Shown: piece by piece, positions 1 to 4,441 of the stretch
How the letters are laid out: each line of letters begins with the position of its first letter
Numbering within the stretch: the first letter of the stretch is position 1
IMG/VR virus record: IMGVR_UViG_2671180608_000007
Coordinates: 1-4,441 of that record
Length of the DNA: 4,441 nt
Strand: one strand, 5' to 3'
Source of the DNA: a virus
Lineage: Duplodnaviria; Heunggongvirae; Uroviricota; Caudoviricetes
Notes under the pieces: model-generated
The model's database searches: none
What the model was told of the DNA's origin: nothing
What the model saw: only the letters and a program-made list of their open reading frames with translations
Made by a program: the position numbers and the translations under genes

Positions 1-137
1 TAACAGGTGTCTGGAAATATAGGGGCAAATCCAGCGTTCATCAGCCCCCGCATTGCCGACAGGATCACAGACGGGGGGCGCAACTGGTTGTCGTTCAACT
101 GGCCCAGCTACCGTTCTTGTATCAGAGGTGTGGCTGC

Positions 138-1529
138 ATGACAACACCAGTCTGGCGTAATGATGACCTGGAAGGCGCTGTCATTGGCGCATTCTTTCTG
201 CGTGGGGCAGATCATGAAGTGATGGATATTCTGATCACACTACCGGCGGACATTTTTTCTGTACGAGCGTATCGGGATATCTACACAGGCATCTGCAGAC
301 AGGCCCGTGTTTCAGGAGTGATTGACCCCGTGCTGTTGTGTAATGAGATGCCGGAACTTGCCCCGGTGATTACTGATACCGGGCGTAAAACCTGGGTGAA
401 GTCTTCACTGGAGCACTATGTTGCAGCGTTGCGGCGCAATGCCGCACTGCGCGATGCAGAAAAAACACTGAATGAGGCGCTGCAGAAATTACGTGATGCG
501 CATACCTGTGAAGCAGCTGAAGATGCCCTGAAGGATGCGCAGAACATGATGGTCACACTGTCGACAGGAAAGGGCGTCATTCAGCCGGTACATATTGATG
601 ATGTGCTTCCGGAAGTGGTTGAGCGTGTTGAATGCCGGAATCAGGGGCTGGAGAAATCCAGGACGTTGATGACCGGTATTGATGAACTGGACGCAAAAAC
701 AGGCGGTATGGAGCCCGGAGACCTGGTATTCATTGCCGCCCGTCCTTCGATGGGGAAAACCGAACTTGCGCTGGACATCATCGACAAGGTGACTGAGCAG
801 GGGCATGGTGTGCTTCTGTTCACCATGGAGATGGCGAACATCCAGATTGGTGAACGTATGGTGTCTGCGGCTGGAGGGATGCCAGTATCACGCCTGAAAT
901 CTGTGGCTCACTTTGAAGATGAAGACTGGGCGCGTTTCTCACAAGGGGTGGGGCGGATGACCGGGCGCAATATCTGGATGGTGGACCAGGCGAACCTGAC
1001 CATTGATGAGATATGCGCAACAACGAAACACCATCTGATTAAACATCCGGAAACGGCGCTGGTGGTGGTTGATTATCTCGGGCTGATAAAAACCCGAACC
1101 ACGGGGCGTCATGACCTTGCCGTGGGTGAAATCTCAAAGGGGCTTAAAGGCCTGGCAAAATCCGGTGGTTTTCCGTTGATTGCGCTGAGCCAGCTCTCCC
1201 GCGGTGTGGAGTCCAGACCCAATAAACGTCCCATGAACTCAGACCTGAAAAATTCCGGAGAAATAGAGGCGGATGCAGACATCATTCTGATGCTTTACAG
1301 GGATGAAGTGTACAACCCGGATACACAGGCTACAGGCATAGCAGAAATTAATATCACGAAACAACGTAACGGTTCTCTGGGGACGATTTACCGGCGTTTT
1401 TATAACGGACATTTTCTGCCTGTGGACCAGGAAAGCGCACAGGTTCTTTCCACCCCAATGCGGCAGCCCCAGCCGCGCAGATACAGCAATACACGTACCG
1501 ACAGCAGTAAGATGGAGCGTTTCTTTTGA
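138..1529 (+). CDS. Replicative DNA helicase, DnaB family (phage-encoded, P22 gp12-like)
   Basis: Translation carries a DnaB-type Walker A (AARPSMGKTELALD), a Walker B-like hydrophobic stretch ending in D (LVVVDYLGLI) and C-terminal DnaB-like blocks (SGGFPLIALSQLSRGVESRPNKRPMNSDLKNSGEIEADADIILMLYRDEVY, ITKQRNG). Start chosen at ATG 138 because GAGGTG sits 8 nt upstream; the track's TTG at 117 is the alternative. The frame is open to the window edge, so a start further upstream cannot be excluded. Confidence 0.9.
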   Translation: MTTPVWRNDDLEGAVIGAFFLRGADHEVMDILITLPADIFSVRAYRDIYTGICRQARVSGVIDPVLLCNEMPELAPVITDTGRKTWVKSSLEHYVAALRRNAALRDAEKTLNEALQKLRDAHTCEAAEDALKDAQNMMVTLSTGKGVIQPVHIDDVLPEVVERVECRNQGLEKSRTLMTGIDELDAKTGGMEPGDLVFIAARPSMGKTELALDIIDKVTEQGHGVLLFTMEMANIQIGERMVSAAGGMPVSRLKSVAHFEDEDWARFSQGVGRMTGRNIWMVDQANLTIDEICATTKHHLIKHPETALVVVDYLGLIKTRTTGRHDLAVGEISKGLKGLAKSGGFPLIALSQLSRGVESRPNKRPMNSDLKNSGEIEADADIILMLYRDEVYNPDTQATGIAEINITKQRNGSLGTIYRRFYNGHFLPVDQESAQVLSTPMRQPQPRRYSNTRTDSSKMERFF

Positions 1530-1783
1530 ACAACCAGACAATGACTTTTACCTCTGAACAATTGCGTAAACACGCGCAGGAAATGTTGCGACAGGCGGAA
1601 CAACTGGAAAAAACAGGTGTAACAAAAGATGCCATTCGTCGGGATATGGTGCCAGCGCTCAGGGAACTGATGCAGGCGAAACATCGCGCACAAAAAGCGG
1701 TGGATGAGCTCGTTGATTGTGTGGCAGAGCTGGAAACCAAAGTTGGAAAGTTTGAAAAAATGGTGCAGGAGGTGCTGCGCTGA
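1526..1783 (+). CDS. Hypothetical small protein (85 aa, predicted coiled coil) in the nin-region position
   Basis: Uninterrupted ORF packed between helicase and rusA. Its TTG start overlaps the helicase stop (TTTTGA) and its stop overlaps the rusA start (TGATG), suggesting translational coupling. Alternative start is ATG 1541. Charged, heptad-like sequence (EQLRKHAQEMLRQAEQLEK...). No family recognised. Confidence 0.5.
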   Translation: MNNQTMTFTSEQLRKHAQEMLRQAEQLEKTGVTKDAIRRDMVPALRELMQAKHRAQKAVDELVDCVAELETKVGKFEKMVQEVLR

Positions 1784-2154
1784 TGCGCCATGAGTTTATT
1801 TTACCTTATCCGCCGACGGTGAATACTTACTGGCGACGTCGTGGCAGCACATATTTTGTATCAAAAGTTGGTGAGCGTTATCGCCGTGATGTGACGCTAA
1901 TTGTTCGCCAGCAGCGGCTGAAATTAAACCTGTCCGGAAGGCTGGCGATAAAGATTATTGCAGAGCCACCGGATAAGCGCCGTCGTGACCTGGACAATAT
2001 CCTGAAAGCACCACTGGATGCGCTGACGCATGCCGGACTACTCATAGACGACGAGCAGTTTGATGAAATCAATATTGTGCGCGGTCAGCTCGTTCCTGGT
2101 GGGCGACTGGGCGTGAAGATTTATGAAATCACAGGTGATAACGATGGCGCGTGA
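1783..2154 (+). CDS. rusA: Crossover junction endodeoxyribonuclease RusA (Holliday junction resolvase)
   Basis: 123-aa product with the RusA signature ([15 protein letters not shown] ... [30 protein letters not shown]) and the acidic residues of the DxD/D catalytic cluster. GGAGG lies about 10 nt upstream of ATG 1783. Sits just before Q, as in phage 82 and DLP12. Confidence 0.9.
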
Positions 2155-2530
2155 TATTCAGCAGGTTATGGAACGGTGGGGGGCTTGGGCTGCAAACACT
2201 CATGAAGATGTATCCTGGGCGTCGATCGCTGCTGGTTTTAAAGGGTTAATTCCGTCGAAAGTGAAATCACGCCCTCAGTGTTCTGATGATGATGCAATGA
2301 TAATTTGTGGCTGTATGGCCCGGTTGAACAAGAAAAATCAGGATTTGCACGATTTGCTGGTGGATTATTACGTAGGTGGAATGACTTTTATGAGTCTGGC
2401 ACGGAAACATGGGTGTTCGGATACCTGTATTGGCAAGCGCCTGCAGAAAGCGGAAGGGGTTATTGATGGCATGTTGATGATGCTTGATATCCGGCTGGAG
2501 ATGGACAGATACGTAGAACGAATTATGTAG
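2144..2530 (+). CDS. Late-gene antitermination protein, small Q-like family (QuuD-like)
   Basis: 128-aa product ([23 protein letters not shown]...[20 protein letters not shown]...[22 protein letters not shown]) closely resembles the small Q-like antiterminators of E. coli cryptic prophages (QuuD, recalled from memory). Start at ATG 2144 with AGGTGA 5 nt upstream; it overlaps the rusA stop (ATGGCGCGTGA). The track's 2123 ATG lies inside rusA and is the less likely start. Confidence 0.85.
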
Positions 2531-2534
2531 GTGC

Positions 2535-2564
2535 TTGACCAGACACATTGTCCGGGGCTATATT
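2535..2564 (+). promoter_or_regulatory. Candidate late promoter PR' (sigma70 -35 TTGACC / 18-bp spacer / -10 TATATT)
   Basis: TTGACC at 2535-2540 and TATATT at 2559-2564, beginning 5 bp after the Q stop codon. This is the canonical position of PR' relative to Q in lambdoid phages. Predicted transcription start is about 2571. Confidence 0.5.
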
Positions 2565-2571
2565 CCTCACG

Positions 2572-2589
2572 CGCCAGCAAAATCTGGCG
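2572..2589 (+). promoter_or_regulatory. Perfect 6-bp inverted repeat in the initial transcribed region (candidate qut / pause-site hairpin)
   Basis: CGCCAG-caaaat-CTGGCG at 2572-2577 and 2584-2589, directly after the predicted start. The loop CAAAAT is a weak -10-like hexamer of the kind that causes sigma-dependent pausing at lambdoid late promoters. Confidence 0.35.
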
Positions 2590-2625
2590 TCGGGATTGGA
2601 ACCCCGGATAGAGACCGCGACAGAC

Positions 2626-2650
2626 ACACGCCGCGAGCGTGTTTTTTATT
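2626..2650 (+). terminator. Intrinsic terminator (tR'-like) ending a ~75-nt leader transcript
   Basis: 6-bp GC-rich stem ACACGC / GCGTGT (2626-2631 and 2637-2642) with a 5-nt loop, followed by TTTTTTATT. Confidence 0.6.
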
Positions 2651-2775
2651 GTCGTATGCACGCGCACATCTGAATTATGGTGGGGCGCATGGGGGAGCTG
2701 AAAAGCTCGCCGGTCGGTTTCCCGGTAGTTCCAACCCTGTGCGTCTCACCACCCGATGATTGGAACCTGACGGTG

Positions 2776-2804
2776 TTGACAGTTTCAGGTTTGCAGTTTA
2801 CATT
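2776..2804 (+). promoter_or_regulatory. Candidate sigma70 promoter for the ORF6N gene (-35 TTGACA / 17-bp spacer / -10 TACATT)
   Basis: Consensus -35 TTGACA at 2776-2781 and a 4/6 -10 at 2799-2804. It is preceded by a 7-bp inverted repeat GTTCCAA / TTGGAAC (2728-2734 and 2760-2766). Confidence 0.3.
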
Positions 2805-3010
2805 TCCCCGCGGTGCTCAAAACACCTCGAAAGCGGTATCCACACCCGATAGCCATGTGGTTTTTTTGTGTCCAGAATTCTTGGTTTATGACCGGGTGTG
2901 CGGCTAATACAATACCAGCAATGGAAATACGCCCGCCGACTTTCGACGGTTTTGAGCGCCCGGTCACCCTCTCAAAAGGGGTAAATCAAAATATTCGAAA
3001 GGACATGTCT

Positions 3011-3574
3011 ATGAATCGCACGTCTATTGAAAAACTCCCGTCACTTACGCATAACCATCTTCCTGTCATGACAACAGAGCTGCTGGCTGATTTGTACGGA
3101 ACAGAGCGCCAGCGTTTGACAAACAATTTCAATCGAAACAAAGAACGGTTTATAGAAGGTAAACATTTTTTCCTGATAGAAGGTGATGCGTTACGAGAGT
3201 TGAAGAACGAAAACTCTTTAAGAGTTTCTGTGAAAATTGCCCGTAACGTTCGCTCCCTCATCCTCTGGACAGAACGTGGCGCAGCCCGTCACGCCAAAAT
3301 GCTCGAAACCGATCAGGCGTGGGAAGTGTTCGAAAAACTGGAAGACTGTTATTTCAACCAGAAACAGCCACCAGCGGCACAAAACACATCTATCGAAAAT
3401 GATGGATGCGCATTACTGAGCCACTTCGATAAACACGGTCAGGTTGAGTTCACGGAAAAGGTACCCGCCGATGCGATGGTATGTACTCTGGAACGGTTTA
3501 AATTTTATCTGGAGCAACATGGGTGGATCGTTGCCCGTAAAGAACAATTGGTGGAAAGGTTGATGCGGTTTTAA
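3011..3574 (+). CDS. ORF6N/KilA-N-like DNA-binding domain protein (phage antirepressor-like accessory gene), 187 aa
   Basis: The N-terminal 100 residues match the ORF6N-type pattern (LADLYGTERQRLTNNFNRNKERFIEGKHFFLIEGDALRELK...SLILWTERGAARHAKMLETDQAWEVFEKLED). The C-terminal 85 aa are unrecognised. Start at ATG 3011 with AAGGA 7 nt upstream; ATG 3005 is in frame. The track's 2813 start adds a Trp/Cys/Phe-rich, non-protein-like extension across the promoter and T-run and is judged unlikely. Confidence 0.7.
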   Translation: MNRTSIEKLPSLTHNHLPVMTTELLADLYGTERQRLTNNFNRNKERFIEGKHFFLIEGDALRELKNENSLRVSVKIARNVRSLILWTERGAARHAKMLETDQAWEVFEKLEDCYFNQKQPPAAQNTSIENDGCALLSHFDKHGQVEFTEKVPADAMVCTLERFKFYLEQHGWIVARKEQLVERLMRF

Positions 3575-3700
3575 TGAATGCAAAACCCCGGATGATCACC
3601 GAGGTTAATTTTATCGAGCGTGATTGCCGCTAATCGCCATCGCTCTGATTGAGCGTAAATCATTCAGGTTATTCAGTTCTTCCTTCTGCTCTCGCTGACG

Positions 3701-3871
3701 TCAATAAATCCCATCATTGCGATCAACCTCATCCTTAACCATTGATGCGAGCAGTTCTTCCAGTTTCTGCGCTGACAGCTTTACCTGGTGATCTTCAGCA
3801 TCTTCCCGGGCTATTGTGGTTCGCGCAGTGGCTGATTTTGCTGACATCACCACAGGGGGCAGACGGACCAT
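3701..3871 (-). CDS. Hypothetical small protein (56 aa), convergent with the ORF6N gene
   Basis: ATG at 3871 with GGAGG 10 nt upstream (CCTCC at 3882-3886 on the + strand). Hydrophilic, helix-like product (MVRLPPVVMSAKSATARTTIAREDAEDHQVKLSAQKLEELLASMVKDEVDRNDGIY). The track's longer form from TTG 3982 would add a hydrophobic segment (LSIVVVIFALICSGG) and start 4 nt after the tfa-remnant stop. No family recognised. Confidence 0.35.
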   Translation of the reverse strand: MVRLPPVVMSAKSATARTTIAREDAEDHQVKLSAQKLEELLASMVKDEVDRNDGIY

Positions 3872-3985
3872 TGAACCATGGCCTCCGGAACAAATAAGGG
3901 CAAAAATAACAACCACTATCGAAAGCTCACAAACTAACCGCAGCACGTTCCTGCATACGACGTGTCTGCGGCATAATCCCAATGA

Positions 3986-4219
3986 TTACTCCCTGACAGG
4001 ATTTGCAGGCCACTCAATATCAGGTGCAGTTGATGTATCAACACGATTCAACAATACCCGATATTTATTCCATGCCTCCAGCAACGATCTTTCTTCCTCC
4101 GTTGCGATTTCCAGATCTACAGCATCCTGCAGTGGCGCAATATACTCACTAAATTCCTGGATGTAGAACTGTGTGGTGACGGTCTTCCAGCCATTCGGCT
4201 CCTGCTGTATCGAAGCATA
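3986..4219 (-). pseudogene. tfa: Tail fibre assembly protein (Tfa) 3' remnant, C-terminal 77 codons with no start codon
   Basis: Hand translation of the minus strand gives ...[53 protein letters not shown] then TAA (3988-3986), which is the conserved C-terminus of lambdoid/e14/Rac-type Tfa proteins. The frame is closed by an in-frame TAG at 4222-4220 with no ATG, GTG or TTG codon in between, so it is a 5'-truncated fragment. It is absent from the supplied ORF track. Confidence 0.75.
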
Positions 4220-4240
4220 CTAGGCTATTTCAATATCGCT

Positions 4241-4255
4241 ATGCTGCGGCAGCAT
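4241..4255. repeat. 15-bp palindrome ATGCTGC-G-GCAGCAT (candidate operator or hairpin)
   Basis: Perfect 7-bp arms around a central G, about 10 bp upstream of promoter-like hexamers and about 20 bp beyond the tfa truncation point. Confidence 0.4.
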
Positions 4256-4323
4256 TTAACCCCTTGTAATTCATCGCCATAATTGATTTAATTCACAAAT
4301 AAAACTATAACATGGTGAAATCA

Positions 4324-4383
4324 ATGAAAACAAACACAGATGATGGGGCTAAAATTTACACACCACTTACCCTAAAGCTTTAA
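4324..4383 (+). CDS. Very short ORF (19 aa, MKTNTDDGAKIYTPLTLKL) inside a promoter-to-terminator mini-unit; possibly the body of a small RNA instead
   Basis: ATG 4324 with GGTGA 5 nt upstream; an in-frame ATG at 4312 would give 23 aa. Promoter-like hexamers lie upstream (TTGTAA 4264-4269 with TTTAAT 4287-4292, or TTGATT 4283-4288 with TATAAC 4306-4311) and the intrinsic terminator lies 11 nt downstream. The product is hydrophilic, so not a type I toxin. Confidence 0.2.
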   Translation: MKTNTDDGAKIYTPLTLKL

Positions 4384-4393
4384 CACACAGCTT

Positions 4394-4420
4394 AAACCCG
4401 CCGATGAGCGGGTTTTTTTA
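4394..4420 (+). terminator. Intrinsic (rho-independent) terminator
   Basis: Stem CCCGC / GCGGG (4397-4401 and 4408-4412), extendable by A:T pairs, with loop CGATGA and followed by seven T (4413-4419). The + strand orientation is favoured because the minus-strand side has only a short T tract. Confidence 0.6.
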
Positions 4421-4441
4421 TACCTGAAAAACGGCACAGGA

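Follow-up and report, generated by a model that had tools for sequence, protein, structure and literature searches.

A probable tfaX-type relic of a tail fibre assembly gene, closed by a nonsense codon, within a patch of phage DNA in an S. sonnei lambdoid prophage

How does the conserved end of a tail fibre assembly (Tfa) protein come to be encoded, against the direction of late transcription, in a piece of prophage DNA that holds no tail-fibre gene? The window analysed here, i.e., the whole stretch of 4,441 nt, represents the early-to-late part of a lambdoid prophage read along the plus strand, as revealed by ORF and Pfam scans. On the minus strand, 77 sense codons (3989-4219) are framed by an in-frame TAG (4220-4222) and a TAA (3986-3988). 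To account for this frame we compared it with Tfa proteins, with related phages and with S. sonnei and E. coli chromosomes; the coordinates of all features are gathered in Table 1.

Table 1. Coordinates of the features identified in the 4,441-nt window.
Feature	Position	Strand	Basis and remarks
DnaB-like helicase	138-1529	+	ORF/Pfam scan
85-aa ORF	listed between helicase and RusA	+	ORF scan
RusA	1783-2154	+	ORF/Pfam scan
Antiterminator Q	2123-2530	+	ORF/Pfam scan
c4-a1b1 targets	2558-2610	+	Rfam
isrK	2571-2647	+	Rfam
C4 antisense RNA	2673-2756	+	Rfam
sRNA-Xcc1	2890-2973	+	Rfam
ORF6N/Rha-type (antirepressor-like) gene, resident	3005/3011-3574	+	Pfam ORF6N, E = 9e-21
Left crossover interval, 32-nt identical stretch at the 3' end of the ORF6N gene	3488-3519		SNP phasing
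Patch, 809 nt replacing 65 resident nt	3575-4383		Comparison with S. sonnei chromosomes
Hairpin after donor Rha gene, CCCCGG-ATGATCA-CCGAGG	3586-3604	+	Read from the sequence, compared with ST131 E41-1
3' remnant of a second tail-fibre accessory gene	3623-3892	-	tblastn, PGAP; internal stop at 3701-3703
tfaX-type ORF	3986-4255	-	89 codons plus stop; ATG 4253-4255, TAA 3986-3988; inactivated by nonsense codon
Genuine Tfa part, conserved Caudo_TAP C-terminal domain	3998-4165	-	Pfam; putative ancient truncation just upstream
TAG nonsense codon	4220-4222	-	TGG (Trp12) in most relatives; by alignment
Divergent tfaX-ybcY intergenic region, AT-rich	4256-4311		GC 0.27
ybcY first 23 codons plus junction-made TAA	4312-4383	+	tblastn, YbcY residues 1-23, 96% identity
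Right junction	4382-4384		Donor to 4382 (ybcY codon 24), resident from 4384
Intrinsic terminator of the resident prophage, ahead of the lysis genes; tR'-like by position	4394-4422	+	Terminator scan

The kinship with Tfa, which an earlier note had read from the translation, is real and lies where that note had placed it. Pfam aligns residues 19-74 with positions 75-130 of the 131 positions of PF02413 (Caudo_TAP; E = 3.7e-25), and the motif of the C-terminal domain (...APLQDAxDLxxATxEE...W..YRV.L.RVD...P.WP) is present. BLASTP against K-12 TfaD returned 52 identities in 63 positions (E = 1e-34). When four full-length Tfa proteins were used as tblastn queries the matches were significant as well, but only from residues ~123-132 to the end, corresponding to window positions 4177-3989. 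Of a complete Tfa just the final ~63 residues are matched (E ~1e-30), and no N-terminal part was detected by these tblastn searches anywhere in the window. The frame therefore does not have profile positions 1-74, the Caudo_TAP_N domain or the total length of ~175-195 aa of a complete Tfa. While its last 63 residues are 81-83% identical to lambda Tfa and TfaD and make up the conserved C-terminal domain, residues 1 to ~125-131 of the lambda-type proteins, Caudo_TAP_N included, have no counterpart and are replaced by ~30 unrelated residues. Similarly, only the C-terminal domain is shared with phage Mu Tfa U (PDB 5YVQ chain B), whose residues 123-174 of 175 align to residues 32-86 of the relic (E = 1.8e-09); Mu U is encoded within the invertible G segment, whereas the relic is not in an invertible segment. 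The N-terminal half missing here is reportedly the fibre-binding half of the protein, according to the 2019 Mu Tfa work of North et al. that accompanies the 5YVQ structure. Nor does the frame come directly after a tail-fibre gene read in the same direction, since the window contains none; its neighbours are the ORF6N gene and a stub of ybcY.

The same note had held that the frame had no possible start codon, that the DNA beyond 4220 is AT-rich and non-coding, and that a deletion or recombination junction lies near 4220. None of the three holds. Eleven in-frame codons 5' of the TAG (4223-4255), beginning with their own ATG, are part of a tfaX-type ORF of 89 codons that is closed by a single-base change, TGG to TAG, at codon 12. 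The codon is TGG in ev243, PhiR29_1, phage 204576, ST131 E41-1 and K-12. Once the TAG position is read through, the ORF starts with MLPQHSDIEIAWYASIQQ..., and the segment MLPQHSDIEIAW... belongs to it; reverting one base suffices to give back the 89-codon ORF typical of the family. Except at Trp12, it is identical to the 89-aa ORF that is open in phage 204576 and in ST131. Within the 77-codon stretch itself the sole start is a TTG, which would yield 32 aa. The GC content is 0.485 across positions 4223-4255, and the AT-rich DNA starts at 4256, with the intergenic region that separates tfaX from the divergent ybcY. A promoter-like site was predicted there at 4256-4283 (plus strand), the count of such sites being no higher than expected by chance. 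Around 4220 the window differs from its relatives at one base and is otherwise collinear with them, from 4031 (3623 in phage 204576, 3397 in ST131) up to 4382; the junctions that do exist are found at 3488-3519 and 4382/4384. The TAG allele is not private to the window, as the exact 71-mer carrying it occurs in 37 E. coli records (e.g., S88); about 3,393 other records differ from this 71-mer at one base at least, TGG being confirmed solely in the aligned relatives.

The tfaX family has already been catalogued, both as K-12 tfaX and under the PGAP label "tail fiber assembly protein, incomplete". Among the papers listed for the two names, tfaX and ybcY come up only incidentally (gene lists, promoter or genome-context studies), neither term standing in a title or abstract. 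The DLP12 copy of K-12 (b0563, 61 aa) is identical to the window ORF over residues 1-61 save for the Trp12 to stop change, and it has the same divergent ybcY neighbour and intergenic sequence, with 92.8% DNA identity across 4009-4382. The two copies are damaged differently: K-12 tfaX ends early after residue 61, whereas the window copy has a complete C-terminus but a stop at codon 12, and ybcY is a full-length pseudogene in K-12 but is cut to 23 codons in the window. They also differ in location, tfaX being downstream of tfaD in K-12 and between the ORF6N and lysis genes here. The ev243 counterpart carries the annotation "tail fiber assembly protein" (101 aa) and has a different C-terminus; both it and K-12 tfaX share with the window ORF the start and the first 61-75 residues.

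At the DNA level the match to complete tfa genes (tfaD and those of 204576 and PhiR29_1) stops at 4150, and at the protein level at 4177. This old truncation of Tfa, at ~4150-4177, is common to all relatives: the tfaX leader is joined to the Tfa C-terminal domain in the window as in K-12 DLP12, S88, ev243, PhiR29_1, phage 204576 and, beside smpB, a P2-like prophage. The gene order is stf > tfa > (ybcY, other strand) > tfaX in every intact comparator, and the tfa-ybcY-tfaX order and orientation were seen in all six of the elements just named. In the window, ybcY, which codes for a class I SAM-dependent methyltransferase, likewise diverges 56 nt upstream of tfaX, and the intergenic region is as in the relatives. 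What differs is the setting: tfaX does not follow a working tfa in direct orientation, and the unit sits in the interval between Q and the lysis genes. Lambda itself has no ybcY-tfaX unit after tfa. The P2-like element is a myovirus prophage (CP058571.1, 1169290-1177559; locus 2637-4270) encoding baseplate J, Tail_P2_I and fibre H, and it ends with the tfa-ybcY-tfaX unit beside smpB. The unit therefore passes, along with the fibre cassette, from one type of phage to others that are unrelated.

Could tfaX-type ORFs instead be working mini-chaperones or regulators made of the Tfa C-terminal domain alone, the window bearing a knocked-out allele? In viable phages, and at least in the E. coli genomes that were sampled, the frame is uninterrupted and its ATG conserved, and what it retains corresponds to the conserved C-terminal domain visible in 5YVQ, the complex of Mu Tfa with the fibre. 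Moreover, the dN/dS ratio between the window tfaX and the P2-like prophage copy is 0.21. However, dS is uneven along the ORF (0.11 in the leader, 0.62 in the Tfa-like part), and this sixfold difference between the two halves points to gene conversion from a working tfa rather than to selection on tfaX. The N-terminal, fibre-binding domain is missing, the C-termini vary, and 37 genomes keep a nonsense allele. A search of 5.8 billion proteins revealed 793 homologues, and those covering at least 90% of the ORF were all short (82-142 aa). Their C-terminal endings fall into several unrelated classes. Forms of tfaX of 61, 82, 89 and 101 aa occur, and the variable endings often lack the conserved APDIEWP motif. 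Short homologues with varied C-termini are what would be expected from a relic whose downstream sequence has been replaced repeatedly. Among these 793 homologues we found no parent or longer protein carrying the 30-residue leader.

Some selection on the ORF might still act in other genomes, given the dN/dS ratio and the ATG conserved in viable phages. Were the mini-protein functional, it could modulate fibre assembly or interfere with the fibres of a competitor. Apart from this, the divergent promoter region of the patch faces back into the ORF6N antirepressor gene and could alter antirepressor or late-gene expression. We regard a selected tfaX mini-protein in viable lambdoid and P2-like phages as improbable, and we hold out just as slim a chance for an effect of the patch promoter region on expression. 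The feature of the window is, very probably, a dead copy of tfaX that plays no role here. The suggestion that the frame is a non-functional recombination leftover, sitting in a stretch bounded by junctions, stands in its outline, while the nature of the lesion, a point nonsense mutation, and its location had been misjudged.

The prophage in which this dead tfaX copy lies was assigned to Shigella sonnei by BLAST and by look-ups of exact proteins. Positions 1-3574 and 4384-4441 of the window are 99.86% and 100% identical, respectively, to S. sonnei chromosomes, in which holin, lysozyme, Rz, HNH and terminase genes come next. Among E. coli complete genomes the left part is ~93% identical and the whole window is found in none. 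The 187-aa ORF6N product is identical to a common S. sonnei protein, and the terminator element is also found after Q or ORF6N in E. coli A8, O158:H23 and MEI7BO1-21 as well as in S. sonnei. In the S. sonnei chromosomes the ORF6N stop codon and the terminator hairpin are separated by 65 nt; in the window, by 809 nt. The identical 65 nt are present in E. coli A8 and MEI7BO1-21, which makes the state without the patch the ancestral one.

A locus found in more than 800 E. coli genomes, e.g., beside ompW in ST131 E41-1, is 99.5% identical to the 809 nt plus the final ~55 nt of the ORF6N gene, and the patch is 98.8% identical to the region of phage 204576 between int and the tail-fibre genes. The exact donor was not found, the best match (99.5%) showing 4 differences; private SNPs are carried at 3602, 4151 and 4331. 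The patch is a scrap of the "b region" that another lambdoid phage has downstream of its tail-fibre genes. It is inverted relative to late transcription, and the minus-strand orientation of tfaX in the window results from the orientation in which the patch was inserted.

Besides tfaX the patch holds, at lower window coordinates, the 3' remnant of a second tail-fibre accessory gene, which tblastn matched to residues 100-182 of Tail4 of Rac-SA53 (E = 3.6e-28) and to residues 101-183 of L57 of phiP27. The similarity is confined to the C-terminal ~83 residues of these proteins (56-60% identity); while Tail4 and L57 are ~187 aa long and encoded directly after a tail-fibre gene, the remnant is a 3' half only, with an internal stop. 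The E41-1 counterpart is annotated by PGAP as a pseudogene (window-equivalent 3611-3889, ancestral stop codon at 3611-3613) and labelled DUF4376, a label that Pfam did not recover for the remnant at 3623-3892. Tail-fibre gene 3' ends stacked in this way, and phage-prophage mosaicism in general, are textbook processes, and the two accessory-gene 3' ends stacked here are what repeated cassette replacement at a host-range locus is expected to leave. At the other end of the patch, ybcY codons 1-23 (4312-4380) remain of a gene annotated at full length in relatives. The TAA at 4381-4383, directly after codon 23, arises from the illegitimate join, and it limits the ybcY stub peptide to at most 23 aa, without any fusion to resident sequence. 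Near the left end, the hairpin following the donor Rha gene is weakened by a G to A change at 3602 (CCCCGG...CCGGGG in ST131). The hairpin (3586-3604) was not picked up by the terminator scan; if it is a working terminator, its weakening would make it easier for transcripts from ORF6N to run on into the patch.

On the left of the patch, phasing of SNPs was clean and showed 8 sites at 3401-3487 to be of the resident (S. sonnei) type and 5 sites at 3520-3557, all synonymous, to be of the donor (ST131) type, which places the crossover within the 32 nt at 3488-3519. This interval is part of a 178-nt stretch over which the parents are ~93% identical, and donor-type DNA accordingly spans 3520-4382 (~0.86 kb). 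On the right, A4383 matches neither parent (L001 and L007 for the donor, L009 and L021 for the resident), and the join shows no microhomology. Neither the 42-mer across this junction nor the 25-mer AAAGCTTTAACACACAGCTTAAACC had a match in GTDB species representatives, IMG/VR or JGI metagenomes, and no record of the E. coli complete-genome collection runs across 4382; being in no other searched sequence, the right junction is known from this window alone. A repeat search found no direct or inverted repeats bounding the patch, and with terminal repeats of either kind absent a transposon-like insertion was rejected.

The picture is that of one homologous anchor, presumably the 3' end of the ORF6N gene, and one join that would be illegitimate. 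Phage-prophage exchange via short diverged homology, stf/tfa genes included, was obtained experimentally by De Paepe et al. 2014 (PMC3945230). The left crossover, in a 178-nt stretch with a 32-nt perfect core, is similar to those mosaics. Unlike them, the right end has no homology, making this a one-sided event, and no recombinase was identified here. An exact 11-nt repeat, ACCCGCCGATG, was also observed just outside the patch, at 3463-3473 in the 3' end of the ORF6N gene and at 4396-4406 in the terminator stem. It coincides with neither junction and is probably due to chance.

The fragment could instead stem from an invertible segment of tail-fibre genes, as in Mu (G), P1 (C), e14 (P) or Rac; it would then be the inverted alternative tfa' of a Gin/Cin/Pin-type switch that has lost its invertase. 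Tfa 3' ends are known recombination points, and ~1-3 kb beyond ybcY the ST131 locus that shares the patch does carry a recombinase gene, truncated, as well as two tfa genes placed head to head, with an alternative C-terminus of the fibre. Yet this block, which holds the one invertase remnant seen among the relatives, stands apart beyond ybcY, and in K-12, PhiR29_1, 204576 and the P2-like prophage tfaX is direct to the working tfa, no invertase being present there. Since tfaX and working tfa are co-oriented in the intact comparators, the relic is not inverted. Within the window, neither ORF nor Pfam searches revealed a serine invertase, and the 26-bp gix/hix/cix consensus had 0 matches at up to 3 mismatches. 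Such an origin is very unlikely. One gix-like motif, ACCGAGGTT at 3598-3606, was considered and discarded, since the hairpin that follows the donor Rha gene has this motif as its 3' arm. As for the ST131 E41-1 locus (9476-14830), it has stf and tfa on one strand and a second tfa with the alternative fibre C-terminus on the opposite one, after which come the truncated recombinase gene and, ahead of ybcY, 84 nt left of a tfa 3' end; this is apparently a decayed invertible host-range switch.

A right junction found in no other searched sequence could also betray an assembly chimera, in which the assembler joined the patch into the contig at a repeat. The left join does lie within a repeat shared by several prophages, and just short of it, at window position 3462, a related draft contig of S. 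sonnei breaks off. But the identical stretch on the left is just 32 nt long, the right join has zero overlap, a kind of join that assemblers do not make, and the patch carries its private SNPs; we give an artefact of this kind very little credence. Least credible of all is decay in place, by one large deletion reaching from near 4220 to the tail-fibre region and removing lysis, head and tail genes: a tail-fibre gene fragment directly after Q and ORF6N does resemble a late-region deletion, but this fragment came from elsewhere into an interval between Q and lysis genes that is otherwise conserved. It runs against late transcription, with resident sequence on both sides and no breakpoint at 4220, and the 58 nt that follow the patch are 100% identical to the resident terminator, after which S. 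sonnei has its holin, lysozyme, Rz and terminase genes.

Taken as a whole, an account in three layers (truncation, import, nonsense mutation) explains this fossil with high probability, and from it we infer the following order of events. Anciently, a tail-fibre assembly gene would have been cut at ~4150-4177, keeping none of the sequence upstream of the conserved C-terminal domain, and the remaining ~55-63 codons would have been joined to ~30 unrelated codons providing an ATG, beside the divergent ybcY. The resulting tfa-ybcY-tfaX unit would then have travelled downstream of tail-fibre cassettes in lambdoid and P2-like phages. More recently, a ~0.86-kb piece comprising the Rha 3' end, the DUF4376-type remnant, tfaX and ybcY codons 1-23 would have come into the lambdoid prophage of S. 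sonnei, behind the ORF6N gene and in front of the terminator that precedes the lysis genes, one end by homology within the ORF6N/Rha 3' end (3488-3519) and the other by an illegitimate join (4382/4384), replacing 65 nt. The TGG to TAG change at codon 12, shared with some E. coli lineages, closes the ORF. The feature is ordinary phage mosaicism and matters little in itself. Its value is modest and lies in a cleanly resolved recent mosaic event within an otherwise 99.9% conserved S. sonnei prophage, which might be used to mark the strain or to illustrate how DNA is captured one-sidedly from a homologous anchor.

Further observations concern the resident part of the prophage. Between Q and the ORF6N gene, window positions 2558-2973 (plus strand) hold four Rfam matches at gathering level (Table 1). 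This cluster looks like a P1 immI-like or Gifsy-1 IsrK-like RNA control module placed before an antirepressor-type gene, a likeness drawn from the Rfam assignments. The window starts ~20 nt inside the end of what is an IS3-family transposase gene region in S. sonnei, and in some S. sonnei genomes the helicase gene is interrupted by another IS at window positions ~367-370. Possibly the 4,441 nt make up an entire draft contig with repeats at its ends.
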